Source: an uncultured delta proteobacterium
Lineage (GTDB): Bacteria; Desulfobacterota; Desulfobaccia; Desulfobaccales; 0-14-0-80-60-11
Length of the DNA stretch: 64,000 nt
Direction of reading: 5' to 3'
NCBI GenBank assembly: GCA_963739295.1
Contig: CAVTZS010000009.1
Span: forward strand, 45,948-109,947
Below the pieces are notes generated by a model. That model saw only the letters and a program-made list of their open reading frames with translations, was not told the origin of the DNA and made no database searches. Of the stretch, positions 39,356 to 64,000 are shown in pieces. Each line of letters starts with the position of its first letter. Position 1 is the stretch's first letter. The translations under genes were made by a program, and so were the position numbers.

Positions 39356-40378
39356 ATGAATCTTGCCCGGGAAAATCTGCTCCAAGACCTAGGTCGGCTA
39401 GTCATCTGGTACCCGTTTCGCTGGCTCACCAGATTTTTACCTGTGCCGGCTAACCTGGCCATTTACGAAGCTTTCGGAGACCTGGCTTATCATATTTATT
39501 CACCCAAGCGGGCTTTGATTACCCGGCGTCTGGCCCAAGCATTTCCCCAAATGGGGTCGGCGGCGCAGTCGGCTGAGGTCCGGGCCAGTTTTCGCAACTA
39601 TTTCGTGGATCGCTTTATTATCAACCTGTTACCGAGCCTGGACCGCACTCACATTGATCGCTTGGCCGTTTTGGAAGGGGAGGAGCATCTCCGCCAAGCG
39701 CAAGCCCGGGGCCGCGGGGTAATCTTAATCCATGCCCATTTTGGGATCAGCCAGTTACCCTTGATATACCTGGGTTACAAAGGCTACCCCATGGCCCAAA
39801 TGGGGTTGCGGGTCGATATGGGCACCAGTGTTATCGGCAAGAGAACCCAAAGGTTGCGCATAAAGATCGAAGAGCAGATGCCCGTGACCCATTTTTACGC
39901 GGATAATTATCTCCGCCCGGTTCTTCGCTGGCTGGAGAATGGCAATATCCTCATGACCGCGGGAGATGGGACCGGCGGGGGACGCTACATCGGCAAGTTC
40001 CACCAGGCTTCCCTTCTGGGCCACCCCCTGGACATGCCCCTGGGGCCCTACCGCCTGGCGGCGGCGCAACAATCCCCCATCCTCCCCATAATTGCCCTGC
40101 GCCAGGGCCGGGGATTTTACCGCATAATCATCCATCCGCCGCTGCCCTTGGAACGTAATGCCGAATCTACCCAGAGACGTTTCGTCACGTGGTTTGAACA
40201 TTATCTCACTCTCGCTCCTGGACAATGGCACTTTTGGGATGAATGGGACCTGGAGCACCCGCCAGATTATTCTAGACCACCCCAAGAACAAGGGGAAGAC
40301 AGGCCAGCCAAAGCCCGAATGGTCCCCGAGACCTTACCCCCAATGGAAGATATGCAAAAAATTATCAATGCAGGCTGA
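39356..40378 (+). CDS. LpxL/HtrB-like (lysophospholipid/lipid A) acyltransferase family protein
   Basis: 340 aa. Layout and the GRGVILIHAHFGISQ (HX4-type) block resemble lauroyl acyltransferases. Clear paralog of 50789..51832. Confidence 0.65.
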   Translation: MNLARENLLQDLGRLVIWYPFRWLTRFLPVPANLAIYEAFGDLAYHIYSPKRALITRRLAQAFPQMGSAAQSAEVRASFRNYFVDRFIINLLPSLDRTHIDRLAVLEGEEHLRQAQARGRGVILIHAHFGISQLPLIYLGYKGYPMAQMGLRVDMGTSVIGKRTQRLRIKIEEQMPVTHFYADNYLRPVLRWLENGNILMTAGDGTGGGRYIGKFHQASLLGHPLDMPLGPYRLAAAQQSPILPIIALRQGRGFYRIIIHPPLPLERNAESTQRRFVTWFEHYLTLAPGQWHFWDEWDLEHPPDYSRPPQEQGEDRPAKARMVPETLPPMEDMQKIINAG

Positions 40379-41528
40379 CCCGGCTCTCAATTCACCAAGT
40401 AATTTAAAGAAAATAATCTTTGCCTTATTAGACAGAGGATTTCGCTCTTTCCCTCCGGCCAGATTTTTCCCCTGTCTCTCTCCCCCTACCCACCTTTTTT
40501 TGTTGCGTACCCATGCCATCGGTGATGTCTTGCTCACCACCCCGGTTATCCGGGCCCTAAAGCAGGCCTGGCCCCAAACCCGGCTAACCATGCTGGTGGG
40601 TGAGAAGTCCCGCCCGATCCTGGAAGGCAACCCCTATATTGATAGGCTATTGTCCTTTCCCGAATCCTGGTGGTTTAATCACCAATTTAGCCAGGTCTGG
40701 CGCCTGACCCGGACTCTGCGCCAATATCCCAAGGATGGTCTGATCCTTTTCCACGCCTCCCCCTTATTGCACCTCTGGGGCTTCCTGCTCAAAGCCCCCC
40801 TCCGGGTAGGTTTTGATAACCAGGGATCCGGTTTTTCCTTGACCCACAGAGTACCCCTGAGCACCCAGAGCCAACGTTACCTCGGAGATATAAATCTCGA
40901 TCTGGTCCGGATCTTAGGCCTGCCGGGGGGAAGTCTGGAATTGGACCTATTTATCCAGGGACCGGAGCTTCAGGCGGTAAAGCGATTCCTGCCCCGCCAG
41001 AACAAGCGGCAGTTGCTGGTGGGCATTGCGCCAGGGGGAGGCCAAAATCCCCTGGAACAAATCTCGGTCAAACAATGGCCAATGGACCACTATGTAAAAT
41101 TGCTCTTGGCCTTGTCACGATTATATCCCGTGGATTTCCTATTGCTCGGCGACCAGTATGATACCCAGGTCGATGAAATTGCTGCCCAGGTCTCTCAAGG
41201 AGGGGCCAAAGTAATTAACCTCAAGGGCCAAACTACCCTTCGAGAACTGGCCGCGCTGATTCATCACCTGGATCTCCTGATTACTAATGACTCTTCCCCC
41301 CTCCACATCGCGGTGGCCTTAAAGAAACCGGTCGTGGGACTGTTCGGCCCCACGGCGGCCAGGGCGCTTTTCCCTGGGGGACCTAATCGAGTGGCCCTGC
41401 AGAGCCCAGCCGCATGCAGCCCCTGTTACGCCTTTGGCCGTTTCCCCGGATGTTCCGCCCCTACCTGCATGGCCGCGATTACTGTGGAAAGCGTCACTCA
41501 GGCAGTGGAAGCTATTCTTGGCGAGTAA
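40368..41528 (+). CDS. glycosyltransferase family 9 (heptosyltransferase-like)
   Basis: Start taken at the ATG at 40368 (MQADPALN...), overlapping the previous gene by 11 nt. LLRTHAIGDVLLTTPVIRALKQAWP and LITNDSSPLHIAVAL blocks are typical of GT9. Confidence 0.8.
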   Translation: MQADPALNSPSNLKKIIFALLDRGFRSFPPARFFPCLSPPTHLFLLRTHAIGDVLLTTPVIRALKQAWPQTRLTMLVGEKSRPILEGNPYIDRLLSFPESWWFNHQFSQVWRLTRTLRQYPKDGLILFHASPLLHLWGFLLKAPLRVGFDNQGSGFSLTHRVPLSTQSQRYLGDINLDLVRILGLPGGSLELDLFIQGPELQAVKRFLPRQNKRQLLVGIAPGGGQNPLEQISVKQWPMDHYVKLLLALSRLYPVDFLLLGDQYDTQVDEIAAQVSQGGAKVINLKGQTTLRELAALIHHLDLLITNDSSPLHIAVALKKPVVGLFGPTAARALFPGGPNRVALQSPAACSPCYAFGRFPGCSAPTCMAAITVESVTQAVEAILGE

Positions 41529-42497
41529 GCCAGGCCAACATCTACTCCCCCCGGGACAACTTTATTTTCCTTGACAGAAGGGCTTTTGCTGGATAAATTT
41601 TCTTATCCTTTCGTTTTGATTAAAAGCTCCAGAAGAATTAAGGGAAAAGATAGAGCTGACCACTGCGGTCAAGTAATCCCCTCCGAGAAGGTGTAAAAAA
41701 CAATCCCCTTAGTAAAGGAACCACCTCTCAGGAGATGCATCCTTCCCTCCTTTTTTCAATGCAAAGCTAACCGTCCAGATGGAGAATCCAGTTGCGGCGC
41801 GATATTTCTAAGATAGCCAGTAGAATGTAAGCAGCTGGGAAAGTGCGGCCTTAAGCCCGTGACTTATACGCTACAATGGGGCCCTGAGGCCAACAAGCCG
41901 GCGGCCTTTTATATTATCAAAAACCTGCCCCAAGCCGATAACTAGGTTAAGGACATGAGGCCAGGGGCTCCGTCAAGGAGCCGTCGCTATGACTCGATAA
42001 AATCAGCAATATTTCCCGACCAGAGCCCTGGGTCAGCCAGGCCGTGCTTACTAAGCGGGATTTTCGATTTCCACCAGATTTTTTTTGATAATGGACTGGG
42101 CGACAACTTGAGCAAGATTGGAGTTCCTTTTCCCAGATTTTTTGCGCGCCCCCGGATGCCTTAATTTCTCCTAAAGAGCGGAAAGTTCGATAATTAAACA
42201 TTGAGATGGTATACCAATGACCGTCTGGAAAACTACCTCATGGGTCATAAGGTGCGGATGGCTCGCCCTAGCGTTCGCCATTTTCTCTGCCAGCTCTATG
42301 GGAGACGATGCCCGAGAATTTTGACCTTGGTGCGGGAAGTCCTACAGGAGCGCCATGTTTAGGGCAACGGACTTACCCCTGCCCAGCTTTGTTTAATTTT
42401 TTTGCCAACATGTTCCACTAGTTAAACCTCCACCTCTAAACAAAAGGTTATAAATAGCTAAGTATATAAATTTGCCAGATATTTTATTTCATACATC

Positions 42498-42513
42498 TGG
42501 TATGGCCCTTGCT
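42498..42513 (+). promoter_or_regulatory. candidate sigma54 (-24/-12) promoter of the AOR operon
   Basis: TGGTATG-GCCC-TTGCT. GG and GC are at the consensus spacing (TGGCACG-N4-TTGCW). Lies 265 nt upstream of the AOR ATG. Confidence 0.5.
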
Positions 42514-42778
42514 TCTCTGACTTGTAAGGCCTCGAGCGCTGGGGTCTCTATACCCTCAGCGACTGAACCTGGAATGGTGAGGTCAGGTTTCAGAACCTTC
42601 AACTACTAGAAGAGATTAGTTATACGGGGGAAAAGGAAAAAAGTGGCGCCGTATTGACCTTTTCCCTTGCCGTTTATACTGAAATTTGTTTAAACTTTAT
42701 AAGGGGGAAAGGAAGCATTATTACAGCAGCTTTTTTAGATGTAATTGGTATCTCCCTCCTGGGTGGGGGGGTGAATAA

Positions 42779-44671
42779 ATGTTGGACCGTCAAAAGATCT
42801 GCCATATAGATTTAGCCAAAGAAGAAAGTAAAGAAGAAGATATTACCGATGAATTGCGTTCTCAGTTTCTTGGTGGCAGAGGTATCAATATTTATCTTCT
42901 CTATACTCACACTACCTCTCAAACAAAAGCTCTTGATCCGGACAACCCCCTGATTGTCGGCGCTGGCTTACTTTCCGGTACTCCCGCTCCATGTGCTGCC
43001 CGCTGCTCCATCGCGGGCAAATCACCCGAGACAGGACTGTTGGGAGATTCAAATATCGGGGGGTTCTTTGCCGCCCAATTAAGGAAAACCGGCTATGACC
43101 ACCTATTGATTAAAGGGCAGTCACCCGAACCGATCTACATTTATTTAGAGAGAGGAAAAGTCGAAATCCGAGATGCTTCTCATCTATGGGGCAGAGATAC
43201 CTTAGAGACCATGAACTTCCTTAAGGAGGCGCATGGTAAATCAAGTGAATCCTTAGTGATCGGGCCCGCGGGAGAAAATCTGGTTAGGTTTGCTACAGTG
43301 AGGCATGGGAGGAAGAATACCGCGGGCAGAACCGGTCTCGGGTGTCTCATGGGGTCCAAGAAGGTTAAGGCTATCGTGGTCAAAGGAGACCGACCCCCGC
43401 TCCTGAAGTATCCCAAGGAGATGATCCCCTATTGCCGGGAGCTCACGCAAATCATTAAAGGAACCAGGACCACTGAAGTATTGCATCGCTACGGCACCCC
43501 GGTTCTCTTCGATTTGCATAACTTACGCGGCATTTTGAGAACCTTGAATGGCCAACTCAATCAGTTCCAAGAGGGACGCGGCTTAAGATCATCTCATCTT
43601 AAGACTTACTATACCAGGGCGAGCGGATGTTTTTCTTGTCCCATCAGATGCCAACATGGTTATAAGTTTCAAGATGGAGATAAGAGGGAGTTTGTTGGGG
43701 ACGGTTTGGAATATGGGGTAATTGGCGCCTTGGGACCAATCTGCGGCCTTAATAATTTGGCAAGTATTTTCGAAATTAATGATCTCCTTAATCGTTATGG
43801 GCTCGATGCCAGTTCTACGGGGAATATTATTGCCTGGGTGACGGAACTCTTTCAAAGGAGGATTATTACCGAAAGAGAGACTGGAGGATTATCATTAAAC
43901 TGGGGAGACGAAAAAGTTATTATTGAACTCATTAAACAAATGGTCGAGAGAAGGGGTTTTGGAAATTTACTGGCCCAGGGGGCAAAGGAGGCCTCAGAAA
44001 AATTAGGAGAGGCATCTAAAAAGTATTTAATCTGGTCCAAGTATCTTCCTCAGTCGGATTCGGTGGACTTAAGGGCCTATAGAGGATTCGCTCTGGGAGT
44101 TGCCACCTCTACCCGGGGAGCTGATCATTTGCGGAGTCGTCCTACCCTGGAGGCGCTGAATTTATCAAATGAGGAGTTACTCAAGGTCTACGGTAAGAGC
44201 GTCCCCAATGATCCCACCGCCTATCAAGAAAAGCCTTACATGGTCTGGTGGTCTGAGATTAATTTTGTTCTGGGAGACGCTTTGGGCATATGTCGATTTG
44301 CTCAGAAATTCAATAATATCAATCACCTGGGCATAGAGGAATTTTCCCAGTTAATTTATTACGCTACCGGGTTGTCTTTGTCATCGGAGGATCTTATCAG
44401 GATAGGAGAGAGAATTATAACCCTGGAAAGGATGTTTCTTAAGCGGGAGGGCATCGATCGGAGGAGCGATAGCCTCCCTGATAGATACTTCGATGAGCCT
44501 ATGCCCTCGGGACCGTTCCAGGGGGAGAGACTAGATCGGGATGCCTTTAACCAGATGTTAGATGATTATTATAGAATCCACCACTGGAATTTAGCTACGG
44601 GGAACCCCACGCCAGATGTAGTCAAGAGTTTAGGCTTGGCGGCGGTAGTGAAAGAGGAGGAAATGTGGTAA
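42779..44671 (+). CDS. aldehyde:ferredoxin oxidoreductase family (tungstopterin enzyme)
   Basis: 630 aa. N-terminal FLGGRGINIYLLY...DPDNPLIVGAGLLSGTPAP...SIAGKSPETG...IRDASHLWG. [4Fe-4S] ligands CFSCPIRC plus a later LGICRF. C-terminal DSLPDRYFDEPMPSGP. Confidence 0.9.
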   Translation: MLDRQKICHIDLAKEESKEEDITDELRSQFLGGRGINIYLLYTHTTSQTKALDPDNPLIVGAGLLSGTPAPCAARCSIAGKSPETGLLGDSNIGGFFAAQLRKTGYDHLLIKGQSPEPIYIYLERGKVEIRDASHLWGRDTLETMNFLKEAHGKSSESLVIGPAGENLVRFATVRHGRKNTAGRTGLGCLMGSKKVKAIVVKGDRPPLLKYPKEMIPYCRELTQIIKGTRTTEVLHRYGTPVLFDLHNLRGILRTLNGQLNQFQEGRGLRSSHLKTYYTRASGCFSCPIRCQHGYKFQDGDKREFVGDGLEYGVIGALGPICGLNNLASIFEINDLLNRYGLDASSTGNIIAWVTELFQRRIITERETGGLSLNWGDEKVIIELIKQMVERRGFGNLLAQGAKEASEKLGEASKKYLIWSKYLPQSDSVDLRAYRGFALGVATSTRGADHLRSRPTLEALNLSNEELLKVYGKSVPNDPTAYQEKPYMVWWSEINFVLGDALGICRFAQKFNNINHLGIEEFSQLIYYATGLSLSSEDLIRIGERIITLERMFLKREGIDRRSDSLPDRYFDEPMPSGPFQGERLDRDAFNQMLDDYYRIHHWNLATGNPTPDVVKSLGLAAVVKEEEMW

Positions 44672-46167
44672 CCCTGGTGGAAATGTTAGAAAAAAATGCC
44701 ATGAATATCCCCGATAAGGTGGCCATAATCCATCATGATCTGAGGATAACCTATGGCGAGCTAAATAATCAGGTAAATCGATTGGCCCATGCCTTATTAA
44801 GTCTAGGGCTGAAGAAGGAAGATCGGATCGGTTTAATGTTACCCAGGATACCTGAATTAGTTATTACTTTCCTGGCCGCGGCAAAAGCCCAAGGTATAGT
44901 GGCTCCAATAAATTTTGAATTAAATAGTAGAGAAATCACAGCTCTCTTAGAAAATCTTTCTCCGAGTTTTTTAATTATTCACGAATTTTTTCTTGACCTT
45001 GCGAAGAAGACTCTTCCCCAGAACCTGAAAATACCAGTTATTGTGGTGGGGAATAAATGTGACGATAATTTTTACTGCTGGGATGATATTTTAAAAGATC
45101 GTAATCAACATAACCTTTCTCTGGAAGTTAAAGAAGATGATGTAGTTTATCTTAATTACACTTCTGGAACCTCAGGGGCTCCTAAAGGCGCCATTACCAC
45201 CCATTCTAATATCTTATGGAATACCTTGGCGTCAGTGGAAACCTTGAAGCTTACCCCTGACGACATCCATTTGTGTATGTTTGCCCCCTTTGCGCATCCC
45301 CACGAGCTTTTTGCCAGGCCTCTCTATTTAGGGGGGACCTTCGTTTTGCTGGAAACGATAAGACCAAAGTCCATCGCCAGGAGCATCTCTGAAAATGAAG
45401 TTACCTGTTTAATGGCCATAGCCCCCATACTTATGACCCTCATGGAAATTGCCAGATCAGGCCAATATGACCTAAGTTCTTTAAGGATTCCAGAGAGTGG
45501 CGGAATGCACACCCGGGTAGAACTTATTAAGCAATTTGAGCAGAGATTTGGAGTACCTATTCTGCCGGTCTGGGGCAGCACCGAAACCACGGGTATAGCC
45601 ATTGCCAATTCCCCTGATAAAGGAGTGGTATACGGTTCGGTAGGAAGACCCTGCAAATCTTATGAGGTGAAGATTGTGGGCGAGGACGGGAAAGAATTGC
45701 CTCCTCATAAGACTGGAGATTTGATTTTCAGAGGACCAGGTATAGTTAGCGGATATTATAATAATAGCGGGAATCCGGATTCTTTTAAAAATGGCTGGTA
45801 TTTTAGTGGAGATCTGGCGAAGAAAGATGAGGAAGGCAATTTTTACTTTGTTGAAAGAAAAAGCGGAATGTTGAAGGTGGCGGGCCTCCAGGTTTATCCT
45901 TTGGAAATTGAGTTAACCCTATTGCGCCACCCTGCTATAAAAGAAGCTGCAGTAATTGGTGTCGAAGATAATCTGAGGGGTGAGGTACCTAAAGCCATAG
46001 TTGTCCCAAATAATGAACATAAGCTAAAAGAGAGAGAGATAATCCAGTATTGTCTGGATAATATGGCTCATTATAAAGTACCCCGGGTAATTGAGTTTCG
46101 GGAAGAGTTACCCAAGATAGGAAGCGGGAAAATTAATAAAAAGGCGCTAAAATTGGAGATAACATGA
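44665..46167 (+). CDS. AMP-dependent acyl-CoA/acyl-ACP synthetase (ANL superfamily)
   Basis: 500 aa. AMP-binding motif YTSGTSGAPKGA, WGSTET, GDL...DEEGNFYFVERKS, and a terminal GKINKK. The GTG start overlaps the AOR stop by 7 nt (AGGAGG 8 nt upstream); an alternative ATG lies at 44683. Confidence 0.88.
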   Translation: MVTLVEMLEKNAMNIPDKVAIIHHDLRITYGELNNQVNRLAHALLSLGLKKEDRIGLMLPRIPELVITFLAAAKAQGIVAPINFELNSREITALLENLSPSFLIIHEFFLDLAKKTLPQNLKIPVIVVGNKCDDNFYCWDDILKDRNQHNLSLEVKEDDVVYLNYTSGTSGAPKGAITTHSNILWNTLASVETLKLTPDDIHLCMFAPFAHPHELFARPLYLGGTFVLLETIRPKSIARSISENEVTCLMAIAPILMTLMEIARSGQYDLSSLRIPESGGMHTRVELIKQFEQRFGVPILPVWGSTETTGIAIANSPDKGVVYGSVGRPCKSYEVKIVGEDGKELPPHKTGDLIFRGPGIVSGYYNNSGNPDSFKNGWYFSGDLAKKDEEGNFYFVERKSGMLKVAGLQVYPLEIELTLLRHPAIKEAAVIGVEDNLRGEVPKAIVVPNNEHKLKEREIIQYCLDNMAHYKVPRVIEFREELPKIGSGKINKKALKLEIT

Positions 46168-47333
46168 AGGCTCTAGTAGTTGACTGCGAATGGAAACCTC
46201 GGGAAGGCTACACCTTAACCGAAGAGGAACGCCTTAACAAGAAAGCTTTCTCTGGCAGCCAGGTATGGAGAAATCCGCATTTCGAGATAAAGGAAGTCCC
46301 GACTCCCAATATAAATGACGACGAAGTTCTCATCAGAGTTAAGGCCTGTGGCATTTGCGGTTCCGATAGCCATCTCTATGAAACAGATAAAGAAGGCTAT
46401 ATTATCTTTTCTGGTCTAGTAAAACTACCCTGCATTTTGGGTCATGAGTTCTCTGGAATTGTTGAAGACGTTGGGGAAAAGGTGGCGAATTTAAAGGTTG
46501 GTGATGTAGTAGCGGTGGAAAGTATTCAATGGTGCGGTTTATGTACTTCCTGCCGCAGCGGCGCGCTAAACCAGTGCAGAAATATAGAGCTCATGGGGTT
46601 AAGTTCTAATGGGGCCTTTGCAGACTACATCGCCGTAAAAGAAAAGTACTGCTGGAAACTAAATAGCTTAAGAGAGCGTTACTCCCATGAAGAGATTTTT
46701 GAAATAGGAGCTCTGATAGAGCCTATTGGCTGTGGGTATAATGGCATATTCATAAGTGGTGAGGGCTTCAAGCCTGGCGAGACCATGGTGGTATATGGCC
46801 TGGGTCCCATTGGCCTAGCCTCCATTGCCTTGGCCAAAATTGCCGGAGCCAGCAAGATCATAGCCTTTGACAAACTTGCCCCGCGCTTGGAGTTAGCCAA
46901 AAGTATGGGGGCGGATTTCGTATTTAATATTGAAGGGTTAGTTAGTGAAAACTCTGGGCCTGGTTACAAGGTTCTGGAATTAACCCACGGGGAAGGAGCT
47001 GATATCCAAATAGAGGCAGCAGGTGATGCCCCGTACACCATTCCAGAGATGGAGAAGGCTACTGCCCCTAACGGAAGGATAATTTATCTGGGCCGGGCCC
47101 AAAGGTCTACTCCCATGTTCTTGGATGCCCTGGTTTCCGGCGCCAATAAAATTGTGGGTGCCCGGGGACACTCCGGATATGGGATATTTCCGAATATCAT
47201 CAGGCTTATTGCCTCGGGTAGACTTGAAGTTAGAGAAATGATTACTGCCAGATATCCCTTTGACAACGTCATAGAGGCGATAGAGAGGTCTTCGCAGAGG
47301 ATTGATGGAAAAATTATGATAAAGATGTCTTAA
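46164..47333 (+). CDS. zinc-dependent medium-chain dehydrogenase (sorbitol/threonine-dehydrogenase-like)
   Basis: 389 aa. GICGSDSHLY, GHEFSGIVEDVG, structural-zinc CGLCTSCRSGALNQC, and VVYGLGPIGLA. ATGA overlap with the ligase gene. Confidence 0.85.
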   Translation: MKALVVDCEWKPREGYTLTEEERLNKKAFSGSQVWRNPHFEIKEVPTPNINDDEVLIRVKACGICGSDSHLYETDKEGYIIFSGLVKLPCILGHEFSGIVEDVGEKVANLKVGDVVAVESIQWCGLCTSCRSGALNQCRNIELMGLSSNGAFADYIAVKEKYCWKLNSLRERYSHEEIFEIGALIEPIGCGYNGIFISGEGFKPGETMVVYGLGPIGLASIALAKIAGASKIIAFDKLAPRLELAKSMGADFVFNIEGLVSENSGPGYKVLELTHGEGADIQIEAAGDAPYTIPEMEKATAPNGRIIYLGRAQRSTPMFLDALVSGANKIVGARGHSGYGIFPNIIRLIASGRLEVREMITARYPFDNVIEAIERSSQRIDGKIMIKMS

Positions 47334-49941: not shown

Positions 49942-50538
49942 ATGTTTAAAAGATCGTTGGATATTATTTTAGCTACCTTTGGGCTGATATTTTTTTCACC
50001 CATTTTTATATTATGTAGTATAATAATATACTTTGGATCACCTGGGCCAATATTCTTTAGGCAAGAAAGATTGGGTAAGGATGGTAAGACTTTCAAAATC
50101 ATAAAATTTAGAACAATGGCAAAAAATGCGGAAAAGATTGTGAGGAACGATCCAGAATTGTACAATCTGTATAAAAAACAATACAAAATCCCCGAGGAAC
50201 AAAATTCATTAATGACTCCTTGGGGGAAAATCATGCGTAAAACCAGTATGGATGAACTACCTCAATTGTTTAATATTTTGAAGGGCAATATGAGTATTGT
50301 AGGGCCCCGGCCGATAGTGCCGGAGGAGATTATGGAATACGGAGCACATGGCCAGAAATTCCTTTCCGTAAAACCAGGGTTAACTGGATATTGGCAGGTT
50401 TCCGGAAGAAATCTGGTAGGCTACCCCCAAAGGGTCTTTTTAGATATGTATTACATCGATCATCAGTCCTTCTGGCTTGATCTTCAAATTATCTTGAAGA
50501 CCTTTCCGGTGGTATTAAAAATGAGAGGCACTCATTAG
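49942..50538 (+). CDS. small monotopic sugar phosphotransferase (PglC/WecA-unrelated 'bacterial sugar transferase' family)
   Basis: 198 aa. KRSLDIILATFGLIFFSPIF...GSPGPIFFRQERLGKDGKTFKIIKFRTM...DELPQLFNILKGNMSIVGPRP. Confidence 0.88.
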   Translation: MFKRSLDIILATFGLIFFSPIFILCSIIIYFGSPGPIFFRQERLGKDGKTFKIIKFRTMAKNAEKIVRNDPELYNLYKKQYKIPEEQNSLMTPWGKIMRKTSMDELPQLFNILKGNMSIVGPRPIVPEEIMEYGAHGQKFLSVKPGLTGYWQVSGRNLVGYPQRVFLDMYYIDHQSFWLDLQIILKTFPVVLKMRGTH

Positions 50539-56395: not shown

Positions 56396-56506
56396 AGAAC
56401 CAAAGATAGGACAGTTGGTTTCCACAACATTGACAACCTTTGCATCGTATTTATTAAGATCCTTTGGTGTAAAGATCAGTCTTAATTTATGGTCTGGGAG
56501 TTACCG

Positions 56507-57060
56507 ATGAAATTTACCTTTATCTCCCTTGGAATTTCTACTGATGCCATTGGCCGCCGCATTCTCTTGTCATTGCTCAAGCAAAACGGGCATCAGTGCC
56601 ATTTGGTGTTTCTGCCCACCAGAGAAGATATCCAAAGGAGAACCACCCGATCTGGGTATCGCTACAGTGATCGCGTTATCAGCCAACTCACTGAAGTTTG
56701 TAGAGATTCTAACCTGGTAGGCTTATCCTTGATGACCCATCATTATTCGGTGGCGGTGGAACTGACCCGAAAGCTTCAGAAAAGCTTATCTGCTCCGGTC
56801 ATCTAGGGCTGTATTCATCCTACGGTGTGTCCCGAAGATTGCCTGGAAGTTGCCGACATGGTCTGCGTGGGGGAGGGGAGACCTCCATAATCGAATTGGC
56901 TGGGCACCTGCAAAGCTTCCAGGAAGTGCGGCAACAGATTGATAATATGAAACAGGCGGGACTTAAGGTCAGGGGCTGGTTTTTGCTGGGTTTTCCTGAC
57001 GAAACCCGGCAAGATATGCAATAAACTATCGAACTGGCCTTGCTCGGAAGTCATCTTCAT
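56507..57060 (+). pseudogene. decayed B12-binding radical SAM paralog
   Basis: The B12-domain N-terminus (MKFTFISLG...SAPVI) runs into an in-frame TAG where paralogs have Trp (VIW-GG-IH), then GCIHPTVCPEDCLEVADMVCVGEG. The radical SAM core is missing. The frame then shifts into a segment about 80% identical at DNA level to 55990-56100 (QEVRQQIDNMKQAGLKVRGWFLLGFPDETRQDM), followed by further stops. Confidence 0.75.
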
Positions 57061-57127: not shown

Positions 57128-58156
57128 TTGATAATGCGAACTATGTTTAAATTCTTCTCATTCTTTTTGTATCTAATTTTAATAATATTTATTTTATTAG
57201 AAATTCTGGTACGATTTTTTGGTTATTCTAAGATGTATCTTTATGACCCTATCTATATGCCTTTCTCCAAAAATAAGGAAATACCTTTCGTTTTAAAACT
57301 AAATCTGAAAGATGCTCGGGCCCAAAGCAATACCCGCATCAATACGGATGAGTTCGGCCTGCGCTGCCTGATTCCCGGCGCTCACTATGAGGCAAAGAGG
57401 CCGGATGAATACCGCATCGCCTTTTTTGGGGATTCTTTCACTTTCGGCCAGGGGGTGGCGAACAATGAAACGTTCCCACAAATTGTGGAAAACGAATTAA
57501 CTACTTTACCATCACGATATACTGTAAAGGTGTTTAATTTCGGGGTCTCCGGTTATAATGTGAAAACCATGACTGATACACTGCGTTACCGGGCTCTCGG
57601 TCTCAAACCTGATTTAGCTATTATGTGCATTATCTATGATGATTTCGATATAAAGAGAACCGGCGTGGTTGATAAATACGGCTATACTGTGAGCCGGTAC
57701 AGCACCAACATTGTCGGGAGCTTCACAAAATCATTCATGCGGAATCTTCATGTAAGCTATGTAATCCGGGATATGTTCTTTAAAATAAGCTCCGCAGCAA
57801 AATCACAGGGGGCGCCTGGTGCTAATTCTGCCGAAGTCCTGCCTACCTCTTATCAATATGTTTTGGATTTCAGGGATTTCGCCCAGGCCCACGGCATAGA
57901 CTATCTCATCGTCACCCTGCCGGCAAAGTCTCCCGAGGATGCGCACATTGTTACGGTCCAGAAACAATTCAATAAAGATAAGATCAAATATTATGATCTC
58001 TTCTTCCTGGCCCAATCCATAAGTCTCGAAGATTTTGGCGTCAGCTCCTCGGATGGGCACCCCTCACCCCTAGTGCAAAAGAAGATAGGGGAGCTATTGA
58101 GTGGGTATATCCTGGAGAATTATCTAAAGGCTCGGAAGGCGGGGGGCCGCCCTTGA
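57128..58156 (+). CDS. SGNH/GDSL-family hydrolase or O-acyl-modifying enzyme, membrane anchored
   Basis: 342 aa. N-terminal TM helix. GDSL block IAFFGDSFTFGQGV, and a later GHPS near the C-terminus (catalytic His context). AT-rich gene. TTG at 57128 or ATG at 57134. Confidence 0.75.
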   Translation: MIMRTMFKFFSFFLYLILIIFILLEILVRFFGYSKMYLYDPIYMPFSKNKEIPFVLKLNLKDARAQSNTRINTDEFGLRCLIPGAHYEAKRPDEYRIAFFGDSFTFGQGVANNETFPQIVENELTTLPSRYTVKVFNFGVSGYNVKTMTDTLRYRALGLKPDLAIMCIIYDDFDIKRTGVVDKYGYTVSRYSTNIVGSFTKSFMRNLHVSYVIRDMFFKISSAAKSQGAPGANSAEVLPTSYQYVLDFRDFAQAHGIDYLIVTLPAKSPEDAHIVTVQKQFNKDKIKYYDLFFLAQSISLEDFGVSSSDGHPSPLVQKKIGELLSGYILENYLKARKAGGRP

Positions 58157-58575: not shown

Positions 58576-60849
58576 TTAATAAAAAGACGCTGAGTGATAT
58601 GGGTCAAAATACCCAACAGTCCAGCCATAGATCGCATAGCCCCACTCGTAGCTGAAAGAACGATCGCCCACGTAAATAGAACCAGCTGTTAAAGACCCAT
58701 CACTATTCACTCCTAGCCAACCAAAAGAAGAGTCATAGTACCAGGTAACCCAAGATCTTTTGTCATATGTAGAGGGATAGTAGTATTCCTTATTGGAAAT
58801 ATAGTAATATCCGTTTAAAGCAGCTCCACCCATTGATTGAGGTTGGTTATAGATGTATTCTCCTACATACAATAAATAAGATGGTGCATAGATATAGCCT
58901 CCATAATAATCTCCGCTGCCATCATTATAATAATAATAGAAGTCAAAGCGGCTGTAAGAGTAGATGCGGCTAAATGGGTCAAAGTAGCCCGGTTGGGAAT
59001 CGTAGATAGCAAAGCCAGATTCCTGACCTGTGGAGCGGTCTGCCACATAAATAGAGGTAGCAGTTAAGGAACCGTCACTGTTAACGCCGAGCCAGGATCC
59101 TAATGAGTAGTAATAGTAGGAGGTAATATAACTTTTCTTATCGTAAGAAGAGTCAAATCCATCGGTAATGTTGGTTATATAGTAATATCCGCCCCCAAGA
59201 CTGACCCCACCCATCCCTTCAGGGTCATTATATATAGTTTGCCCCAATGTTAAATATGGCGAGGAAGTCTGAAAATATGTAGGGGCATAGACATGACCTT
59301 TATAGTAATCTCCACTCCCATCATTGAGGTAATAGATGAAATCGTAGCGGCTGTAGCTGCCCACATCGGCTTCATAGTATCCATCCCCGAAATAGAATCC
59401 AGGGACCCCGGATTTGATGATATAGTCGTGCTCGCTGTCCAGGTAGCTGCTGCCCACCGCCGTACCGTTGCTCACCGGGGTGTAAGTATTGCCGCTTTCC
59501 TGGTCATAATAGCTGGTCACATAGACCTGGCCCGCCATGCTGCCATCACTGCCTAAATCTGTGGCCCCGGTAATTTCATAGTATCCGGTCTGCCCGTTCT
59601 CATCTGTGGTAGTCTGCTTGTAACCAACAGCATAATCATGATAACCGGTTGGCGCATAGACATAACCGGTGTAATAATCGCCGTTACCGTTGTTATAAGA
59701 ATAGACAAAGTCATACCGAGTGAACTCGCCAGATTGGGTCGGTGTTGCCTCATAAATTACAAGATTGTCACCTTCATAAGCAAACCAGACAATCTGCCCG
59801 CGGGCGTTGATCATCGGCTCATAGTTGTTATATGAAGTGTTGGTAATCTGGGTAATAGTGCCATCGCTATACGCAAAGATCTGGTCAAACTGGCCGTCTC
59901 CCCCAACCCAGAAAATCTGGCCGTTATCGTTAATCTGCGGACCAAAGTTATCGTAGTTGCTATTGGTGATCTGGCGCACGATGCTATCGTTATATAAATA
60001 AATTTCATCGTTATGTCCGTCGGAACCAAACCAGACGACCTGTCCCCGATCGTTGATACGGGGACCGCCGTTATCAGAACTATTATTGCTAAGCTGGATG
60101 ATGGTTGCGTTTTTATAGAGATAGATTTGAAAATCGTTACCATCAGCTCCGAACCAGACAATCTCCCCATGGTCGTTGATCTGAGGGAAACTATTGTCAT
60201 GCCCGCTATTGGTGATTTGGTTAATGCTGCCCTCATCATACAAATAAACATTCCAATTCTGGCCATCAAGTGCAGTCCAGACAATCTGCCCGTAGTCGTT
60301 ATTATCAGGCCGAAAATTGCTAAAGTTATTCGTGATCTGAGTAATTATCCCATCTGCGTATGAATATATCTCACCGCTGGGACCTCGGGAATACCACACA
60401 ATTTGGCCGGAGTCGTTGATCGCCGGAGTTTCGTCATCAAAAGCGTTATTGGTAATTTGGGTGATGCTTCCGTTATTGTAGAGGTAAATTTGCGAGTGAA
60501 GATTCGCATCTAACCCTTTCCACAAGAATTGACCACGATCATTGATCATGGGATATCCACCGCCAAAAGGATTATCAGTGATTTTGGTGGTCGTCCCCTG
60601 ACTATAAAAATAAATTTGATAATCACCCCCTACCCAGACAATCTGTCCACTGCCGTTGATCTGGGGATGCCCATCATCTAATCCCAGTTTCCCATACCCC
60701 CGCCAGATCTCGGTGATAGTGTAGTCCACTGCGCCAGCTGACGGCACCGCGACGCCTAGAATTACTACAAGAGACCAAAATATAGACCAAATCGATTTAG
60801 TCCCGGTCATCTTGGCAAGCCATGGTTTCAGTCTCATCTCTGTCTCCAC
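58576..60849 (-). CDS. secreted tandem-repeat protein: 8 x ~41-aa 'ITQITN...IND.GQIVW' repeats plus 3 x ~120-aa Tyr/Gly-rich modules
   Basis: 757 aa. N-terminal signal/anchor (IWSIFWSLVVILGVAVPSAGA). Repeats end in INGSGQIVW, INDRGQFLW, INDSGQIVW, NNDYGQIVW, INDHGEIVW, INDRGQVVW, INDNGQIFW and INARGQIVW. The C-terminal half has three modules, each with RYDF.Y..N.G.GDYY.G..YAP. The last two modules also end in WLGVNSDGSLTA.SIYV.DRS. Confidence 0.8.
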   Translation of the reverse strand: METEMRLKPWLAKMTGTKSIWSIFWSLVVILGVAVPSAGAVDYTITEIWRGYGKLGLDDGHPQINGSGQIVWVGGDYQIYFYSQGTTTKITDNPFGGGYPMINDRGQFLWKGLDANLHSQIYLYNNGSITQITNNAFDDETPAINDSGQIVWYSRGPSGEIYSYADGIITQITNNFSNFRPDNNDYGQIVWTALDGQNWNVYLYDEGSINQITNSGHDNSFPQINDHGEIVWFGADGNDFQIYLYKNATIIQLSNNSSDNGGPRINDRGQVVWFGSDGHNDEIYLYNDSIVRQITNSNYDNFGPQINDNGQIFWVGGDGQFDQIFAYSDGTITQITNTSYNNYEPMINARGQIVWFAYEGDNLVIYEATPTQSGEFTRYDFVYSYNNGNGDYYTGYVYAPTGYHDYAVGYKQTTTDENGQTGYYEITGATDLGSDGSMAGQVYVTSYYDQESGNTYTPVSNGTAVGSSYLDSEHDYIIKSGVPGFYFGDGYYEADVGSYSRYDFIYYLNDGSGDYYKGHVYAPTYFQTSSPYLTLGQTIYNDPEGMGGVSLGGGYYYITNITDGFDSSYDKKSYITSYYYYSLGSWLGVNSDGSLTATSIYVADRSTGQESGFAIYDSQPGYFDPFSRIYSYSRFDFYYYYNDGSGDYYGGYIYAPSYLLYVGEYIYNQPQSMGGAALNGYYYISNKEYYYPSTYDKRSWVTWYYDSSFGWLGVNSDGSLTAGSIYVGDRSFSYEWGYAIYGWTVGYFDPYHSASFY

Positions 60850-60887
60850 TCTTGACTGAAATTATGCGTCAGCCTTAGCTGGGGCTG

Positions 60888-61289: not shown

Positions 61290-62660
61290 TTACATGGCGG
61301 AAGCGGACGACCTCACAGTGATACTCTGGACAATTCTGTCCGCCGCCTCAATGGCGCTTTGCACTGCCCCCGGGGTGGTGACATATAAAAACCGACCCTG
61401 TCTTCCGGCCAGCTGCACTCTCTCAGACTCCACTTCTTTAATAATCGCGTCTACCTTTTCTTCAAAACCCAGGCTATAAATGGGATAGGCGTGGTGCACG
61501 ATCTTGGAATGTCTGAGCATTATCTCCTCAACCTCAAAGAGTTTCAGTTCCTCAGTCAATTGCTTAATAACCAGATCCTCCACATCGTCATGGAGGCGAT
61601 TGACTTTGGGATTAAAGGCGATCTCGATGGTGACCGTATTCAAACCGCTCGGCTGAGCCAAGCTGAGCAGCCTCTTCCATGGGTGATGATTCTCCAGGGA
61701 ATATAAGATAAAAAATTTATGAAAGATAAGTGGACGCTTGACCACCAGAAAAATCAGTTTTAAATCGATATATTCCAGCTGCCGGGCATAGGCGCGAGAC
61801 TTTTCCGAGAGTGGCGGTTTATATGCCGAAACTAATTCCTCTAAAGGAATGGTGGAGATGGCAAAGTCGGTGTGGTACACCGCCGGGCCGGCGGAGCTGT
61901 CATAGTGAATGGCGACACCGCCGGTATCCTCTCGGATCAGCTCCTTGACTTGAGCGCCGTAAACCATCCTGACCCCCTTGGTCTGGCAAAGCTCCGCCAG
62001 TTTCCAGGAAATCTTTCCCACTCCGCCACCGTAGGGATAGACGACCGGATCGCTTTTAACTTTCATCTCTTTTATCTTCCGGGGTGACGCAAAGATGGCC
62101 GACAGCATCCGCCCTGGCCTGGTTATCTCGTGCACATTTCGCAACCGCAACTCACCTAGCCGCGGTGACAGTTTCGTTGGCGGCAGCCCCTGTAATTTGG
62201 TGACATAGGTCTCCAAATGACTCAGTTTCAGCAAGTGAGACGTCAGGCGGTAACGGAGCCAGTCATGCAAATTATCGCCATCCCACCCCAAAGTGCACCT
62301 GATATAAGAATAAAGATAATCAAAGGCGCTCCCCAATAAGGCAAATTTGGATTCCTTCAGTAATAAGCTCTTGGCAAGGGGAAAATCGTAGATCCCACCT
62401 TTTAGCCAAGCTTTTTGGGCGATGTCTTCTGGGGGTCGGAAGAGGTCAGGAAATAATTGGCATAAGTAGTTGGATTGGAGGAAGAAAAACACCCCGTTAT
62501 CCCACCAATAACCATTCTGGTTGGTAGTCTGGAAGAGGCCGCCAGGATAATCCTGCTCTTCCAAGATGACGATTTCCGAGACTCCTGGAAGATTTGCTTC
62601 TTTCAGGCGTAACGCGGCGCTTAAGCCGGTCAGACCTCCGCCGATTATTGCGATCTTCAA
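61290..62660 (-). CDS. FAD/NAD(P)-dependent oxidoreductase (amine-oxidase / phytoene-desaturase / protoporphyrinogen-oxidase-like fold)
   Basis: 456 aa. N-terminal dinucleotide motif KIAIIGGGLTGLSAALRL..E. C-terminal ...LAGRQGRFLYVTTPGAVQSAIEAA, typical of this flavoprotein fold. Confidence 0.75.
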   Translation of the reverse strand: MKIAIIGGGLTGLSAALRLKEANLPGVSEIVILEEQDYPGGLFQTTNQNGYWWDNGVFFFLQSNYLCQLFPDLFRPPEDIAQKAWLKGGIYDFPLAKSLLLKESKFALLGSAFDYLYSYIRCTLGWDGDNLHDWLRYRLTSHLLKLSHLETYVTKLQGLPPTKLSPRLGELRLRNVHEITRPGRMLSAIFASPRKIKEMKVKSDPVVYPYGGGVGKISWKLAELCQTKGVRMVYGAQVKELIREDTGGVAIHYDSSAGPAVYHTDFAISTIPLEELVSAYKPPLSEKSRAYARQLEYIDLKLIFLVVKRPLIFHKFFILYSLENHHPWKRLLSLAQPSGLNTVTIEIAFNPKVNRLHDDVEDLVIKQLTEELKLFEVEEIMLRHSKIVHHAYPIYSLGFEEKVDAIIKEVESERVQLAGRQGRFLYVTTPGAVQSAIEAADRIVQSITVRSSASAM

Positions 62661-62701
62661 AAGCTTTAACCTCCGTTACCTGCAAGGGCTGTCTCAGACC
62701 T

Positions 62702-64000
62702 TTACGCGGCTCTATCTCCCAGGGCTATGGGCCGTCTTTGCCGGAGCAGCAGCCGAACCTTGAGTTGTCGTAATCTGGCAAGTAGTGAGAGCATTACGGG
62801 ACGGTTGAACCATTCCAGCAGTTTGGGATGGGCCAGCAGCCTGAGGAGAGGCAAGGGGCAACGACTGCCAGTCAGATTGAGGAGTAACTTCAAGTAAATG
62901 TTTCCCGCGACGTGGAACTGCTTGCGATATACCTGCCGCCTTTCATCCTCAATTAAGCCTTCTTGGGCCGCCCGGGTGTAGAGGTCGGTACCGGGAATGA
63001 AGACTAGGGAAAATTGCTGCACCTGGTAGGGCGGGGGAATTTGCATCAAGAGTTTCAAGGTATCCTGGATATCTTTCTGATTTTCATAGGGATTATCGAT
63101 GATAATATCGTATTTGGGTGGCTCCAGAGGGGGGATGAAACGGGCCAAAATCTTCCCCGCCTCGATTACCTGAGACGAGGACCCCTCGCGTTGATACAGA
63201 CGGCGGGTGCGGTCACTCCCGGTCTGGATACCGATTTGCAGGCCTCTGAGCCCCACCTTGGTGAGGAGGGTCAGTTTTTTCTCCGTAATGGCCAGGGGGC
63301 TGGCTAAACAGCGAAACGGCAAAGCAATCTCCTGAGCGTATACTTTGGCAAATTTTTCCAGCCAGGGCAGGGGAGCCGAAAAAAAAGAATCGTCAGAAAA
63401 GACGATGACATTGAGAAAGGGAAAGCTGGCCTTTATCTCCTGGAGCTCGGAGATTAAGGTATCAACCTTTAAAAACCGGACATATTTCTGACGCGGGTAA
63501 AGCTGCCGTAAAAAGTTGTTGCAGCAATAGGCGCAATGGTACGGGCAGCCGCGACTGGCCATGGTTTGGTACACGATTTCTCCCCGAGTGGGATTTGACA
63601 ACGGGTTGGAAGCCATCAGGGATTTAAAGGCAGCCATATCCATGGGCCTGAGGGGCGGCTGGGCCAGCGGGGCATAATAATGATCACGCATATCATAATC
63701 CGGTCGCGGGTACTGATCGAGATTCTGCACCAACGGAGCTACGGGATTGTGAACCACCTGGCCGTCTTGCCGGAAGGTGAGGTTGGCAATGTCAGTGGTG
63801 GGTTGCCCGGTTTCCAGGGCCTGGGCGAGCTTCGCCAAGGCCTCTTCACCCTCTCCCCGGCAGACAAAGTCTGCGTGCGTCAGGCACTCCTCCGGGCGAA
63901 TGGTGGCATGGATTCCACCCCAAATAACCGGAATCTCCAGTTGCTGGCGCAGATAATCGCTCAGGTGAGCCACCCTTTCAAAACAGTAGGTCATCAGGGA
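62702..64000 (-). CDS. B12-binding-domain radical SAM protein (N-terminus beyond the window edge)
   Basis: The frame remains open to the right edge. Visible part starts inside the B12 domain (IPVIWGGIHATIRPEECL..ADFVCRGEGE). CX3CX2C in SRGCPYHCAYCCNN. Followed 42 nt later by the FAD oxidoreductase on the same strand. Confidence 0.8.
   Translation of the reverse strand, partial: SLMTYCFERVAHLSDYLRQQLEIPVIWGGIHATIRPEECLTHADFVCRGEGEEALAKLAQALETGQPTTDIANLTFRQDGQVVHNPVAPLVQNLDQYPRPDYDMRDHYYAPLAQPPLRPMDMAAFKSLMASNPLSNPTRGEIVYQTMASRGCPYHCAYCCNNFLRQLYPRQKYVRFLKVDTLISELQEIKASFPFLNVIVFSDDSFFSAPLPWLEKFAKVYAQEIALPFRCLASPLAITEKKLTLLTKVGLRGLQIGIQTGSDRTRRLYQREGSSSQVIEAGKILARFIPPLEPPKYDIIIDNPYENQKDIQDTLKLLMQIPPPYQVQQFSLVFIPGTDLYTRAAQEGLIEDERRQVYRKQFHVAGNIYLKLLLNLTGSRCPLPLLRLLAHPKLLEWFNRPVMLSLLARLRQLKVRLLLRQRRPIALGDRAA

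Follow-up and report, generated by a model that had tools for sequence, protein, structure and literature searches.

A candidate surface-glycan cassette with five subfamilies of B12-binding radical SAM enzymes in an uncultured delta proteobacterium

Gene content of the locus

The DNA under study is a stretch of 64,000 nucleotides from an uncultured delta proteobacterium (contig CAVTZS010000009.1), which is referred to as the window at its full length. Positions 39,356 to 64,000 carry five intact genes for radical SAM enzymes with a B12-binding domain (B12_1 to B12_5), interleaved with genes for two acyltransferases (LPLAT1 and LPLAT2), glycosyltransferases and an oxidoreductase module. This segment probably constitutes a cassette for acylation and radical tailoring of a polyprenyl-linked, exported surface glycan, be it an exopolysaccharide (EPS), a capsule or an O-antigen-like polymer, possibly with a lipid anchor. 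Its reading as a surface-glycan locus whose tailoring enzymes form a set without precedent is well supported as a lead. One of the largest reserves of unassigned enzyme chemistry is found in radical SAM enzymes that carry a B12 domain, for which antibiotics, cofactors, proteins, hopanoids and archaeal lipids are the known substrates.

Genes were assigned from a listing of open reading frames (ORFs) and Pfam scans, and family membership was tested against the curated NCBIfam cutoffs. Every gene named in an earlier note on this DNA was confirmed, with its position, by the ORF listing and Pfam. Related loci that were fetched for comparison are numbered L001, L002 and so on. The segment contains the following features:

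39356..40378, plus strand: LPLAT1, acyltransferase of the LpxL/PatA superfamily, 340 aa (PF03279, 79.3 bits)
40368..41528, plus strand: GT9-family glycosyltransferase, ORF opening at 40158 (PF01075, 93.4 bits)
41529..42778: ORF-free spacer of 1.25 kb, 46% GC, dividing two transcription units
42779..44671, plus strand: aldehyde:ferredoxin oxidoreductase family protein (AFOR), tungstopterin type, 630 aa (AFOR_N, 246 bits; AFOR_C, 351 bits)
44665..46167, plus strand: AMP-forming acyl-CoA ligase, 500 aa (AMP-binding, 273 bits)
46164..47333, plus strand: IolM-family Zn-dependent polyol/cyclitol dehydrogenase, 389 aa (NF041097)
47373..48842, plus strand: B12_1, HpnJ-like B12-binding radical SAM enzyme, 489 aa (PF02310 and PF04055)
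48945..49925, plus strand: GT2 glycosyltransferase, partner of B12_1, 326 aa (PF00535, 133 bits)
49942..50538, plus strand: small polyprenyl-phosphate phosphoglycosyl transferase (PGT, Bac_transf), 198 aa (PF02397, 216.7 bits)
50789..51832, plus strand: LPLAT2, second acyltransferase of the LpxL/PatA superfamily, 347 aa (PF03279, 58.4 bits)
52088..53662, plus strand: B12_2, B12-binding radical SAM enzyme, 524 aa (PF02310 and PF04055)
53673..54980, plus strand: B12_3, B12-binding radical SAM enzyme, 435 aa, relative of BzaD/TIGR04072 (PF02310 and PF04055)
55016..56395, plus strand: B12_4, B12-binding radical SAM enzyme, 459 aa, lineage-specific branch (PF02310 and PF04055)
56489..57042, plus strand: decayed chimeric remnant of B12-radical SAM genes
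57128..58156, plus strand: SGNH/GDSL hydrolase with a hydrophobic N-terminal segment, 342 aa (PF00657, 29.8 bits; cutoff 23.6)
58576..60849, minus strand: secreted repeat protein, 757 aa, no Pfam match, membership in the system uncertain
61290..62660, minus strand: amine-oxidase-fold FAD flavoprotein (AmOx), 456 aa (PF01593, 70.9 bits)
62702..64000, minus strand: B12_5, B12-binding radical SAM enzyme, N-terminus past the window end (PF02310 and PF04055)

The GT9 gene probably starts at the ATG at 40368 rather than at 40158. Within the three plus-strand units the intergenic gaps measure between -7 and 102 bp, pointing to operons. The ligase reading frame overlaps both of its neighbours by 4-7 bp, and AFOR, ligase and dehydrogenase are translationally coupled. 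These three genes (42779-47333), lying between the acyltransferase/GT9 pair and the first radical SAM gene, had not been listed by the earlier note. On the minus strand, the flavoprotein gene at 61290 begins 41 bp past the stop of B12_5. The GC content is mosaic, with 36-47% in the operon from AFOR to PGT as against 50-59% from LPLAT2 to B12_4, suggesting that the AFOR-to-PGT operon came in as one cassette.

B12_5 is truncated by the window end. Its full length of about 505 aa was taken from L001, a second assembly of the same population (99.87% identical) which reaches past this end. A sixth intact gene, B12_6 (465 aa, L001 589-1986), lies just outside the window and is transcribed divergently. 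The earlier count of five intact genes and one decayed gene holds in the window, except that the gene at 62702 is cut by its end and that a further intact gene follows. At position 3444, L001 lacks 2 bp relative to window positions 63385-63386, resulting in a frameshift of B12_5. The difference reflects an error of assembly or else a null allele that segregates in the population. The pseudogene placed at 56507 proved to be real, but it extends from 56489 and is chimeric. Its first part (56489 to about 56870) corresponds to residues 1-124 of a B12_5-type protein with 40% identity and has an in-frame stop. The second part (56872-57042), in another frame, corresponds to residues 310-366 of a B12_4-type protein with 61% identity. 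No radical SAM cluster motif was found in the remnant (56489-57042).

In the spacer at 41529-42778 no ORF longer than 84 aa was detected, tblastx against the fetched loci gave no match and no gene remnant, and promoter and terminator scans remained at background. A cobalamin riboswitch or other RNA was considered for this spacer and rejected, as no Rfam family reached its gathering score. Since the LPLAT1-GT9 pair is placed elsewhere in L007, the spacer could represent either a long leader or the scar of a rearrangement.

Five subfamilies of B12-binding radical SAM enzymes

PF02310 is followed by PF04055 with a CX3CX2C motif in all five window proteins and in B12_6. The presence of both domains in the five intact genes was thereby verified. 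One such motif occurs per gene, namely CPYQCIYC (47373), CPWRCAFC (52088), CPLTCSYC (53673), CPGSCGFC (55016) and CPYHCAYC (62702). The DxHxxG motif was found in none of the five window enzymes; it is usually absent in class B radical SAM enzymes. Pairwise identities of 22-28% bear out the description of these enzymes as highly diverged, the exception being B12_4 and B12_6 (66%). The set comprises five anciently separate subfamilies gathered in one locus. The earlier view of an expansion of paralogs is not upheld, as B12_4/B12_6 is the sole recent duplicate. Judging from the 66% identity of this pair against 22-28% elsewhere, recent gene turnover is limited to B12_4, B12_6 and the remnant.

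None of the five enzymes reached any curated NCBIfam cutoff. B12_2, B12_4 and B12_5 gave diffuse matches only, the best score of B12_2 being that with ApyD (191 bits against a cutoff of 750). B12_3 scored 245.6 bits with BzaD (cutoff 450) and 199.9 bits with TIGR04072 (cutoff 360), while B12_5 reached 97.2 bits with the latter model (cutoff 360). The nearest solved structures were AprD4 (6fd2), 9ccb, TokK, CysS and TsrM, all of them remote (≤91 bits), and the PDB sequence search gave no match for B12_5. A paper about the glutamine methyltransferase of methyl-coenzyme M reductase cites the entry 9ccb. The two-domain architecture and the CX3CX2C motif are common to the window proteins and to GenK/GenD1, MoeK5, Fom3 and AprD4. 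On the other hand, the known class B enzymes have small-molecule antibiotics or proteins as substrates, and the window matches to them are remote. Several solved or known enzymes of the class B type work on carbohydrate carbons (PMC12931638).

Four subfamilies (B12_1, B12_2, B12_3 and B12_5) have relatives of their own in the related loci, and B12_4 has none. For B12_2, orthologs were found at 71-86% identity, with a next tier at 42-57% (Nitrospinae, Nitrospirota, Magnetococcales and Desulfatirhabdium butyrativorans). B12_3 has about 37 orthologous clusters at 59-89% identity, after which identity falls to ≤41%; a tblastn search of the PLSDB plasmids with B12_3 gave no match at 1e-30. Among 1.84 billion protein representatives, nothing close to B12_4 was found outside its own cluster, the best other match having 45% identity, and no ortholog is present in L007, L093 or L094. 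Giant proteins (1,500-2,300 aa) that contain 3-5 tandem B12-radical SAM stretches are found among the relatives of B12_4.

The weak matches to models of ribosomally synthesised and post-translationally modified peptide (RiPP) enzymes raise the question of whether a peptide or protein is modified, either as a RiPP or by methylation or glycosylation of secreted/PEP-CTERM proteins such as the 757-aa protein. In its favour, the cluster includes the gene for a secreted repeat protein, the related loci have GT-C genes of the PMT_2 type, and the window bears XrtA/PEP-CTERM markers. Nevertheless, the scores of ApyD (≤191 against 750 bits) and TIGR03975 (≤89 against 282 bits) stay far below the cutoffs. 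Neither the window nor the related loci showed a conserved small precursor ORF, and a protease and a peptide exporter are likewise missing. In the related loci no counterpart of the repeat protein is kept, the conserved partners being sugar- and acyltransferases. Peptide or protein modification is thus most improbable, in agreement with the earlier note, which had considered a RiPP pathway less likely.

TIGR04072 is the best or second-best match for B12_3 and B12_5, and this bears on another explanation. The locus could encode a pathway for a free membrane lipid or glycolipid akin to the 'ladderane-like' TIGR04072 clusters, in which the radical SAM enzymes and the flavoprotein build branched, cyclised or cross-linked alkyl chains and the acyltransferases attach them to a membrane glycolipid. 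The relatives of B12_3 at 32-36% identity are true TIGR04072 members (L031 scores 384 bits), in clusters with an LPLAT, B12-radical SAM enzymes, FabD/FabG/FabF and an HpnN-like RND transporter. Ladderane synthesis has been proposed to rely on a phytoene-desaturase-like protein paired with a B12-radical SAM enzyme (PMC13459092). Such 'ladderane' (antiSMASH) clusters of the TIGR04072 type are known in Desulfobacterota and other non-anammox bacteria, and their function is not known (PMC9902471). Like the window, they combine several B12-radical SAM enzymes with an LPLAT gene and often with an XrtA-type polysaccharide deacetylase, and B12_3 is a diverged relative. In contrast, FabD, FabG, FabF, FabZ, the acyl carrier protein (ACP) and the RND exporter are absent from 39-64 kb, where glycosyltransferases and the PGT are found instead. 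The TIGR04072 cutoff of 360 is missed by both enzymes (200 and 97 bits), and the loci related to the cassette are embedded among polymer-export genes (Wzx, Wzy, Wza and Wzc). A free-lipid pathway is therefore judged unlikely, though it is the least unlikely of the alternatives weighed here. The relation to TIGR04072 clusters suggests acyl chains as the substrate for at least B12_3.

Conservation of the cassette in other genomes

The B12_3 alignment, with its very specific patterns, picked out only two loci among 185,579 species genomes, and larger numbers came from a metagenome scan. The only close match among the species genomes was L007, from a metagenome-assembled genome (MAG) of Thermodesulfobacteriota. 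Its gene order is AFOR-ligase-ADH (alcohol dehydrogenase)-B12_1-GT2-PGT-LPLAT1-GT9-LPLAT2-B12_3-GT-C-B12_5-AmOx-B12_2-Wzx-B12, with 56-78% identity. L002 and L094 belong to one 63-kb metagenome contig, which contains B12_1, B12_2, B12_3, two B12_5 genes, both LPLATs, AmOx and the AFOR module. There, the cassette genes flank and interleave two GT-C genes, Wzx, Wza and Wzc.

A more distant version, with cassette genes at 28-54% identity, was found in the cultured Desulfatirhabdium butyrativorans DSM 18734 (L093; AUCU01000024.1, about 24.5-46 kb). Its order is Wzc-Wzx-Wzy-GT-C-...-GDSL-GH39-LPLAT-B12_2-B12_5'-B12_5'-B12_3-LPLAT-GT9-DUF362/Fer4-B12_1-GT2. L021 is one tight operon (Wza-ligase-IolM-like-Wzc-Wzx-LPLAT-B12_5'-B12_3'). 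In L005 and L006, the B12_3 ortholog stands beside genes for exosortase EpsH/EpsI, GNVR and Wzm/Wzt, and export genes of the Wzx/Wzy/Wza/Wzc type were also found in L016. L008, which holds a 37% relative of B12_3, was discarded as a guide to context, since it lies amid a molybdopterin oxidoreductase and other radical SAM genes and represents a different system.

Orthologs of B12_2 have 78-82% identity in L007 and L094 and 54% in L093, and those of B12_5 have 73-74% in L007 and L094. More remote relatives of B12_5 (36-40%) adjoin LPLAT and B12_3-like genes in L019, L021, L024 and L093. The LPLAT2 gene is directly upstream of the B12_3 ortholog in seven of the eight informative loci, and this arrangement recurs at relatives of 37-41% identity. 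B12_2 sits between LPLAT2 and B12_3 in the window and in L093, and in the latter an LPLAT gene directly precedes B12_2. Deep co-conservation inside the polysaccharide-export loci of anaerobes is thus shown. With the subfamilies found together in independent genomes at 35-82% amino acid identity, their co-location exceeds chance.

The opposite could be argued, namely that glycan loci of anaerobes gather unrelated radical SAM genes by horizontal transfer and that no common pathway exists. The mosaic GC content described above, a gene order which varies among genomes, the pseudogene and the lineage-specific duplicate would be consistent with it. However, in at least two lineages of Thermodesulfobacteriota the association of four subfamilies with both LPLATs and GT9/GT2 persists over a range that begins at 82% and extends to 28-54% identity, and the adjacencies LPLAT2-B12_2/B12_3 and B12_1-GT2 are conserved. 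A mere co-location has very little probability in the light of these data. The proposal of a co-conserved, uncharacterised tailoring system, made in the earlier note, stands: the system recurs in the Thermodesulfobacteriota MAG, the 63-kb metagenome contig and D. butyrativorans. No radical SAM enzyme of the set was assigned at cutoff to a family with a documented product.

The B12_1-GT2-PGT triad

B12_1 matches the HpnJ model TIGR03471 over its full length with 420.6 bits, below the cutoff of 577.6, and the next-best family scores 181. Alignment with an annotated HpnJ gave 37% identity over 480 aa from end to end (E 3e-107). Its relatives form more than 120 clusters at ≥59% identity, in Thermodesulfobacteriota, Nitrospirota, Elusimicrobia and WOR-3 among the named phyla.

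GT2 and PGT genes follow B12_1 in seven of eight diverse loci (the window, L002/L015, L007, L009, L010, L095 and L096). In L011, B12_1 and GT2 are present and the PGT is absent from the immediate neighbourhood. All the loci of this group in other genomes, L011 included, are of the Wzx/Wzy type, and the triad is seen in at least four phyla (WOR-3, Elusimicrobia, Nitrospirota and others). The GT2 orthologs (54-62% identity) stand directly behind B12_1 in L002, L007, L010 and L011, and the PGT orthologs have 59-60% identity in L002 and L007. In the EPS_sugtrans and WbaP models, the region that the PGT matches is the C-terminal, catalytic one. As is typical of a Wzx/Wzy locus, the initiating polyprenyl-phosphate PGT, GT2 and GT9 are all contained in the cassette. 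A homolog of B12_1 with 47.6% identity is encoded in a glycan cluster of the heptose type on plasmid 1 of the cultured pig pathogen Lawsonia intracellularis (L012, NC_008012.1 16055-17518). This 27-kb plasmid otherwise carries GT2, GalE, SIS/HAD/GHMP-kinase (heptose-type) and methyltransferase genes.

Since B12_1 travels with an initiating transferase and a first glycosyltransferase, its substrate would most simply be the reducing-end unit on the lipid carrier. B12_1 stands beside a GT2 gene as hpnJ does, and it would likewise act on a lipid-attached sugar. HpnJ, of bacteriohopanepolyol cyclitol ether synthesis, and the archaeal calditol synthase Cds are radical SAM enzymes for ring contraction of lipid-linked sugars, the HpnJ reaction itself, from a lipid-linked glucosamine to a cyclitol ether, being only proposed (PMC13459092). 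In the case of B12_1, the lipid would be the polyprenyl-diphosphate carrier of a Wzx/Wzy locus and not a hopanoid. A true hpnI-hpnJ-hpnK locus served as comparison, and none of the hopanoid genes hpnI, hpnK, shc and hpnH was found in the 64-kb window.

Among the B12_1 loci, L095 contains FabH and a 78-aa ORF, and sigma54 activators flank L011 and L096.

Acyltransferases and the GT9 gene

LPLAT1 and LPLAT2 share 32% identity. Orthologs of LPLAT1 were found at 58-65% identity in L002 and L007 and at 37% in D. butyrativorans. The GT9 ortholog of L007 (61%) is beside LPLAT1, and a GT9 gene is also found behind LPLAT1 in L093.

The earlier note had placed these genes in a locus of the lipopolysaccharide (LPS)/lipid A type. 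The LPLATs would then add secondary acyl chains, the GT9 enzyme would add core heptose and the radical SAM enzymes would methylate or cross-link lipid A chains. PF03279 and GT9 are indeed best known from LPS assembly, and GT9 is found behind LPLAT1 in the window, L007 and L093. The best LpxL-type scores were nevertheless only 60.6 (LPLAT1) and 33.7 bits (LPLAT2) against LpxL/LpxM cutoffs of 298-540, and GT9 reached 113-120 bits with the heptosyltransferase II/III models, below cutoffs of 135-170. The HX4D/E motif is absent from both LPLATs, which have H128-x4-Q133 (LPLAT1) and H143-x4-Q148 (LPLAT2) instead. No lpxA/C/D/B/K or waaA gene and no other waa gene was found in the 64-kb window, and the partner genes are a polyprenyl-phosphate PGT, Wzx, Wzy, Wza and Wzc. 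The weak scores, the missing motif, the lack of lpx/waa genes and the Wzx/Wzy/Wza/Wzc-containing relatives together show that this is not a lipid A locus, and tailoring of lipid A or the LPS core is accordingly considered quite improbable. The target is most aptly regarded as an exported glycan of the cell surface, perhaps lipid-anchored, and not as lipid A.

Other LPLAT-fold enzymes provide a closer parallel. PatA is an acyltransferase of phosphatidylinositol mannoside synthesis. VexE, encoded in the Vi-antigen capsule locus, is a protein of the LPLAT fold that produces the glycolipid by which an exported polysaccharide is anchored (PMC9597891). Like PatA and VexE, the window proteins are LPLAT-fold enzymes encoded with glycan genes, which would acylate a sugar hydroxyl and not lipid A. 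They differ in reading HX4Q, and both donor and acceptor are putative. With the PatA model, the LPLATs scored 47-50 bits against a cutoff of 209. In the PDB sequence search LPLAT2 remained unmatched, and no match to solved LPLAT structures was detectable.

AFOR module, flavoprotein and minus-strand genes

The AFOR-ligase-dehydrogenase module is kept in full in L002 and L007, and ligase and dehydrogenase alone occur in L021. Orthologs of AFOR have 62-63% identity in L002/L015 and L007, at an equivalent operon position, which in D. butyrativorans is held by a DUF362/ferredoxin gene. The ligase orthologs have 58-61% and the dehydrogenase orthologs 62-68% identity in L002, L007 and L021. The best NCBIfam match of the ligase, long-chain-fatty-acid-CoA ligase, reached 394 bits (cutoff 476). 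With TIGR03098, the accessory model of XrtA loci, it scored 247 bits against a cutoff of 592.

The dehydrogenase is assigned at cutoff to NF041097 (scyllo-inosose 3-dehydrogenase; 537.4 bits full-length, cutoff 450), and it matches PDB 3ip1 with 283 bits. The gene is found outside an inositol catabolic operon (iolG, iolN, iolO, kinase), its neighbours being AFOR, ligase and B12_1, and the same holds for L002, L007 and L021. Enzymes of the IolM family act on secondary alcohols of cyclitols. A sugar or cyclitol substrate would therefore fit, in line with the HpnJ-type chemistry proposed for B12_1.

A tungstate ABC transporter of the TupA/TupB type is encoded at 25094-27476 (minus strand; TupA/TupB at 25741-27476), 15 kb from the AFOR gene. 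TupA and TupB scored below their equivalog cutoffs, and a generic ABC permease model scored above its cutoff.

Flavoprotein orthologs have 67% identity in L002 and 56% in L007, and the pairing of B12_5 and the flavoprotein is seen in the window and in L007. The PDB matches of the flavoprotein (CrtI, UGM, PPOX) cover the N-terminal FAD motif only, so that desaturase-like and mutase-like functions are not separable by them. Fragments of a flavoprotein gene were detected between two B12_5-type genes in L094 (7647-7975), with an intact copy elsewhere on the same contig, a further sign of gene turnover in these cassettes.

GDSL-type genes occur in L002, L004, L005 and L093, too diverged from the SGNH hydrolase gene at 57128 for linkage by tblastn. 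The 757-aa protein has a signal-peptide-like N-terminus, about nine 'QITNN..P.IND.GQIVW' repeats and then three Tyr/Gly-rich repeats.

Proposed function

We infer the substrates and reactions of a glycan-tailoring pathway from the domain content, the operon structure, the separate subfamilies and their co-conservation. Synthesis would start with the PGT (49942), which would load the first sugar phosphate onto the carrier, and GT2 (48945) would attach the next sugar. B12_1 may then carry out a radical reaction on the reducing-end unit; by analogy with HpnJ this could be a contraction of the pyranose ring to a cyclitol, or alternatively a C-alkylation. Oxidation of a secondary hydroxyl group, on either sugar or cyclitol, would fall to the IolM-family dehydrogenase. 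AFOR and the ligase might turn an aldehyde into an activated carboxylate or provide the acyl-CoA donor, and AFOR might, speculatively, also be the source of reduced ferredoxin for the six radical SAM clusters. Both LPLATs would esterify sugar hydroxyls with fatty acyl groups in the manner of PatA/VexE. The unactivated carbons of these acyl chains or of the sugars may be methylated, cross-linked or desaturated by B12_2, B12_3, B12_4/B12_6 and B12_5 with the flavoprotein. GT9 would extend the glycan. Flipping, finishing and export would be due to Wzx, GT-C, the SGNH hydrolase and Wzy/Wza/Wzc, the genes for flipping and export being outside the segment here and inside the loci of the relatives.

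Several observations weigh against the assignment to an exported glycan. Between 39 and 64 kb the window showed no gene for Wzx, Wzy, Wza or Wzc, and the nearest polysaccharide genes and XrtA markers are 25 kb upstream of the cassette, with unrelated genes between. The identity of B12_1 and HpnJ is only 37%, the GT2 partner of B12_1 has no similarity to HpnI (E = 0.21), and no HpnK-like deacetylase adjoins B12_1. The nearest named relative of B12_3, TIGR04072, is found in lipid clusters of the fatty-acid-synthase type, which would point to a lipid rather than a sugar. No tblastn homolog of the SGNH hydrolase or of the 757-aa protein was found in the related loci, and no related locus has a known product. 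Finally, some enzymes with a B12-like domain, e.g. AprD4, bind no cobalamin (PMC12931638), so that B12-dependent methylation is not established by the domain.

A bolder version of the proposal is possible, albeit doubtful. This would be the first cobalamin-type radical SAM tailoring of a bacterial surface polysaccharide. B12_1 would make a carbocyclic, ether-linked reducing-end residue, and the four other subfamilies would C-alkylate or cross-link sugars or the acyl groups installed by the LPLATs. Such chemistry, which needs no oxygen, would yield a lipo-polysaccharide matrix that resists hydrolysis, and the triad would be an unrecognised sugar-modifying module that spans phyla (Nitrospirota, Elusimicrobia, WOR-3 and Thermodesulfobacteriota, with a homolog in Lawsonia).

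No B12-radical SAM enzymes in polysaccharide loci were found in the literature searched, including full text, on EPS, capsule, O-antigen and PEP-CTERM contexts, and nothing joining radical SAM, B12, Wzx and polysaccharide was found in the open literature. PEP-CTERM, exosortase and radical SAM were named jointly in one open paper only, a transcriptome study of Geobacter. A 2026 review of the radical SAM superfamily leaves polysaccharide, glycan and lipopolysaccharide substrates unmentioned (PMC12931638), and recent reviews of lipid-modifying and B12-dependent radical SAM enzymes contain no polysaccharide-tailoring member (PMC13459092, PMC12931638). The present analysis adds that at least four subfamilies travel with two sugar-type acyltransferases in polysaccharide-export loci of anaerobes, and that one subfamily belongs to a three-gene module with initiating transferases in several phyla. 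If the proposal is true, an oxygen-independent, C-C bond-forming tailoring would join the repertoire of bacterial surface glycans. It would bear on the properties of the biofilm matrix, on sediment organic matter and possibly on biomarkers, and the HpnJ family would gain a second experimentally accessible setting. As the cassette is present in the cultured D. butyrativorans DSM 18734, the question is open to direct test.

Genes elsewhere in the window

The first 15 kb of the window contain GDP-mannose, UDP-GlcNAc-epimerase and FabH/ACP/SDR (short-chain dehydrogenase/reductase) genes and a long phosphoglycosyl transferase. Two XrtA/PEP-CTERM markers scored above their cutoffs, PrsT with 337.9 bits (cutoff 312.2) and the XrtA-system deacetylase with 354.6 bits (cutoff 276.2). 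No exosortase gene was found in the window. The likeness to XrtA/PEP-CTERM EPS loci consists of PrsT and the deacetylase in the window and of EpsH/EpsI beside the B12_3 orthologs of L005 and L006. The differences are the lack of an exosortase and the 25 kb that separate the cassette from the markers. XrtA/PEP-CTERM loci are known to include an acyl-CoA ligase as an accessory.

Within the XrtA EPS block, 1783-3827 (plus strand, about 38% GC) encodes FabH (KAS III), a 100-aa ACP-like ORF (2824-3126, motif LDSMAL) and an SDR reductase. This trio is likely a dedicated acyl side-chain module. A c-di-GMP-I-GGC riboswitch (RF03167) was detected at 16003-16084 on the minus strand, with 74.7 bits against a gathering score of 59. 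Its position upstream of the SLT transglycosylase (14856-15710) and PrsT (12199-14616) genes suggests control of XrtA/PEP-CTERM genes by cyclic di-GMP (c-di-GMP).

Directly upstream of the cassette, 35961-38968 encodes an AmmeMemoRadiSam-system enzyme (265.6 bits, cutoff 220) and two small radical SAM proteins. These three were considered as cassette members and rejected, since they lack a B12 domain and seem to have no relation to the cassette. Between the XrtA genes and the cassette, a GAF-sigma54 activator (17054-18664) and a pair consisting of a CHASE2 sensor and an adenylate/guanylate cyclase (21758-23904) are encoded on the minus strand.

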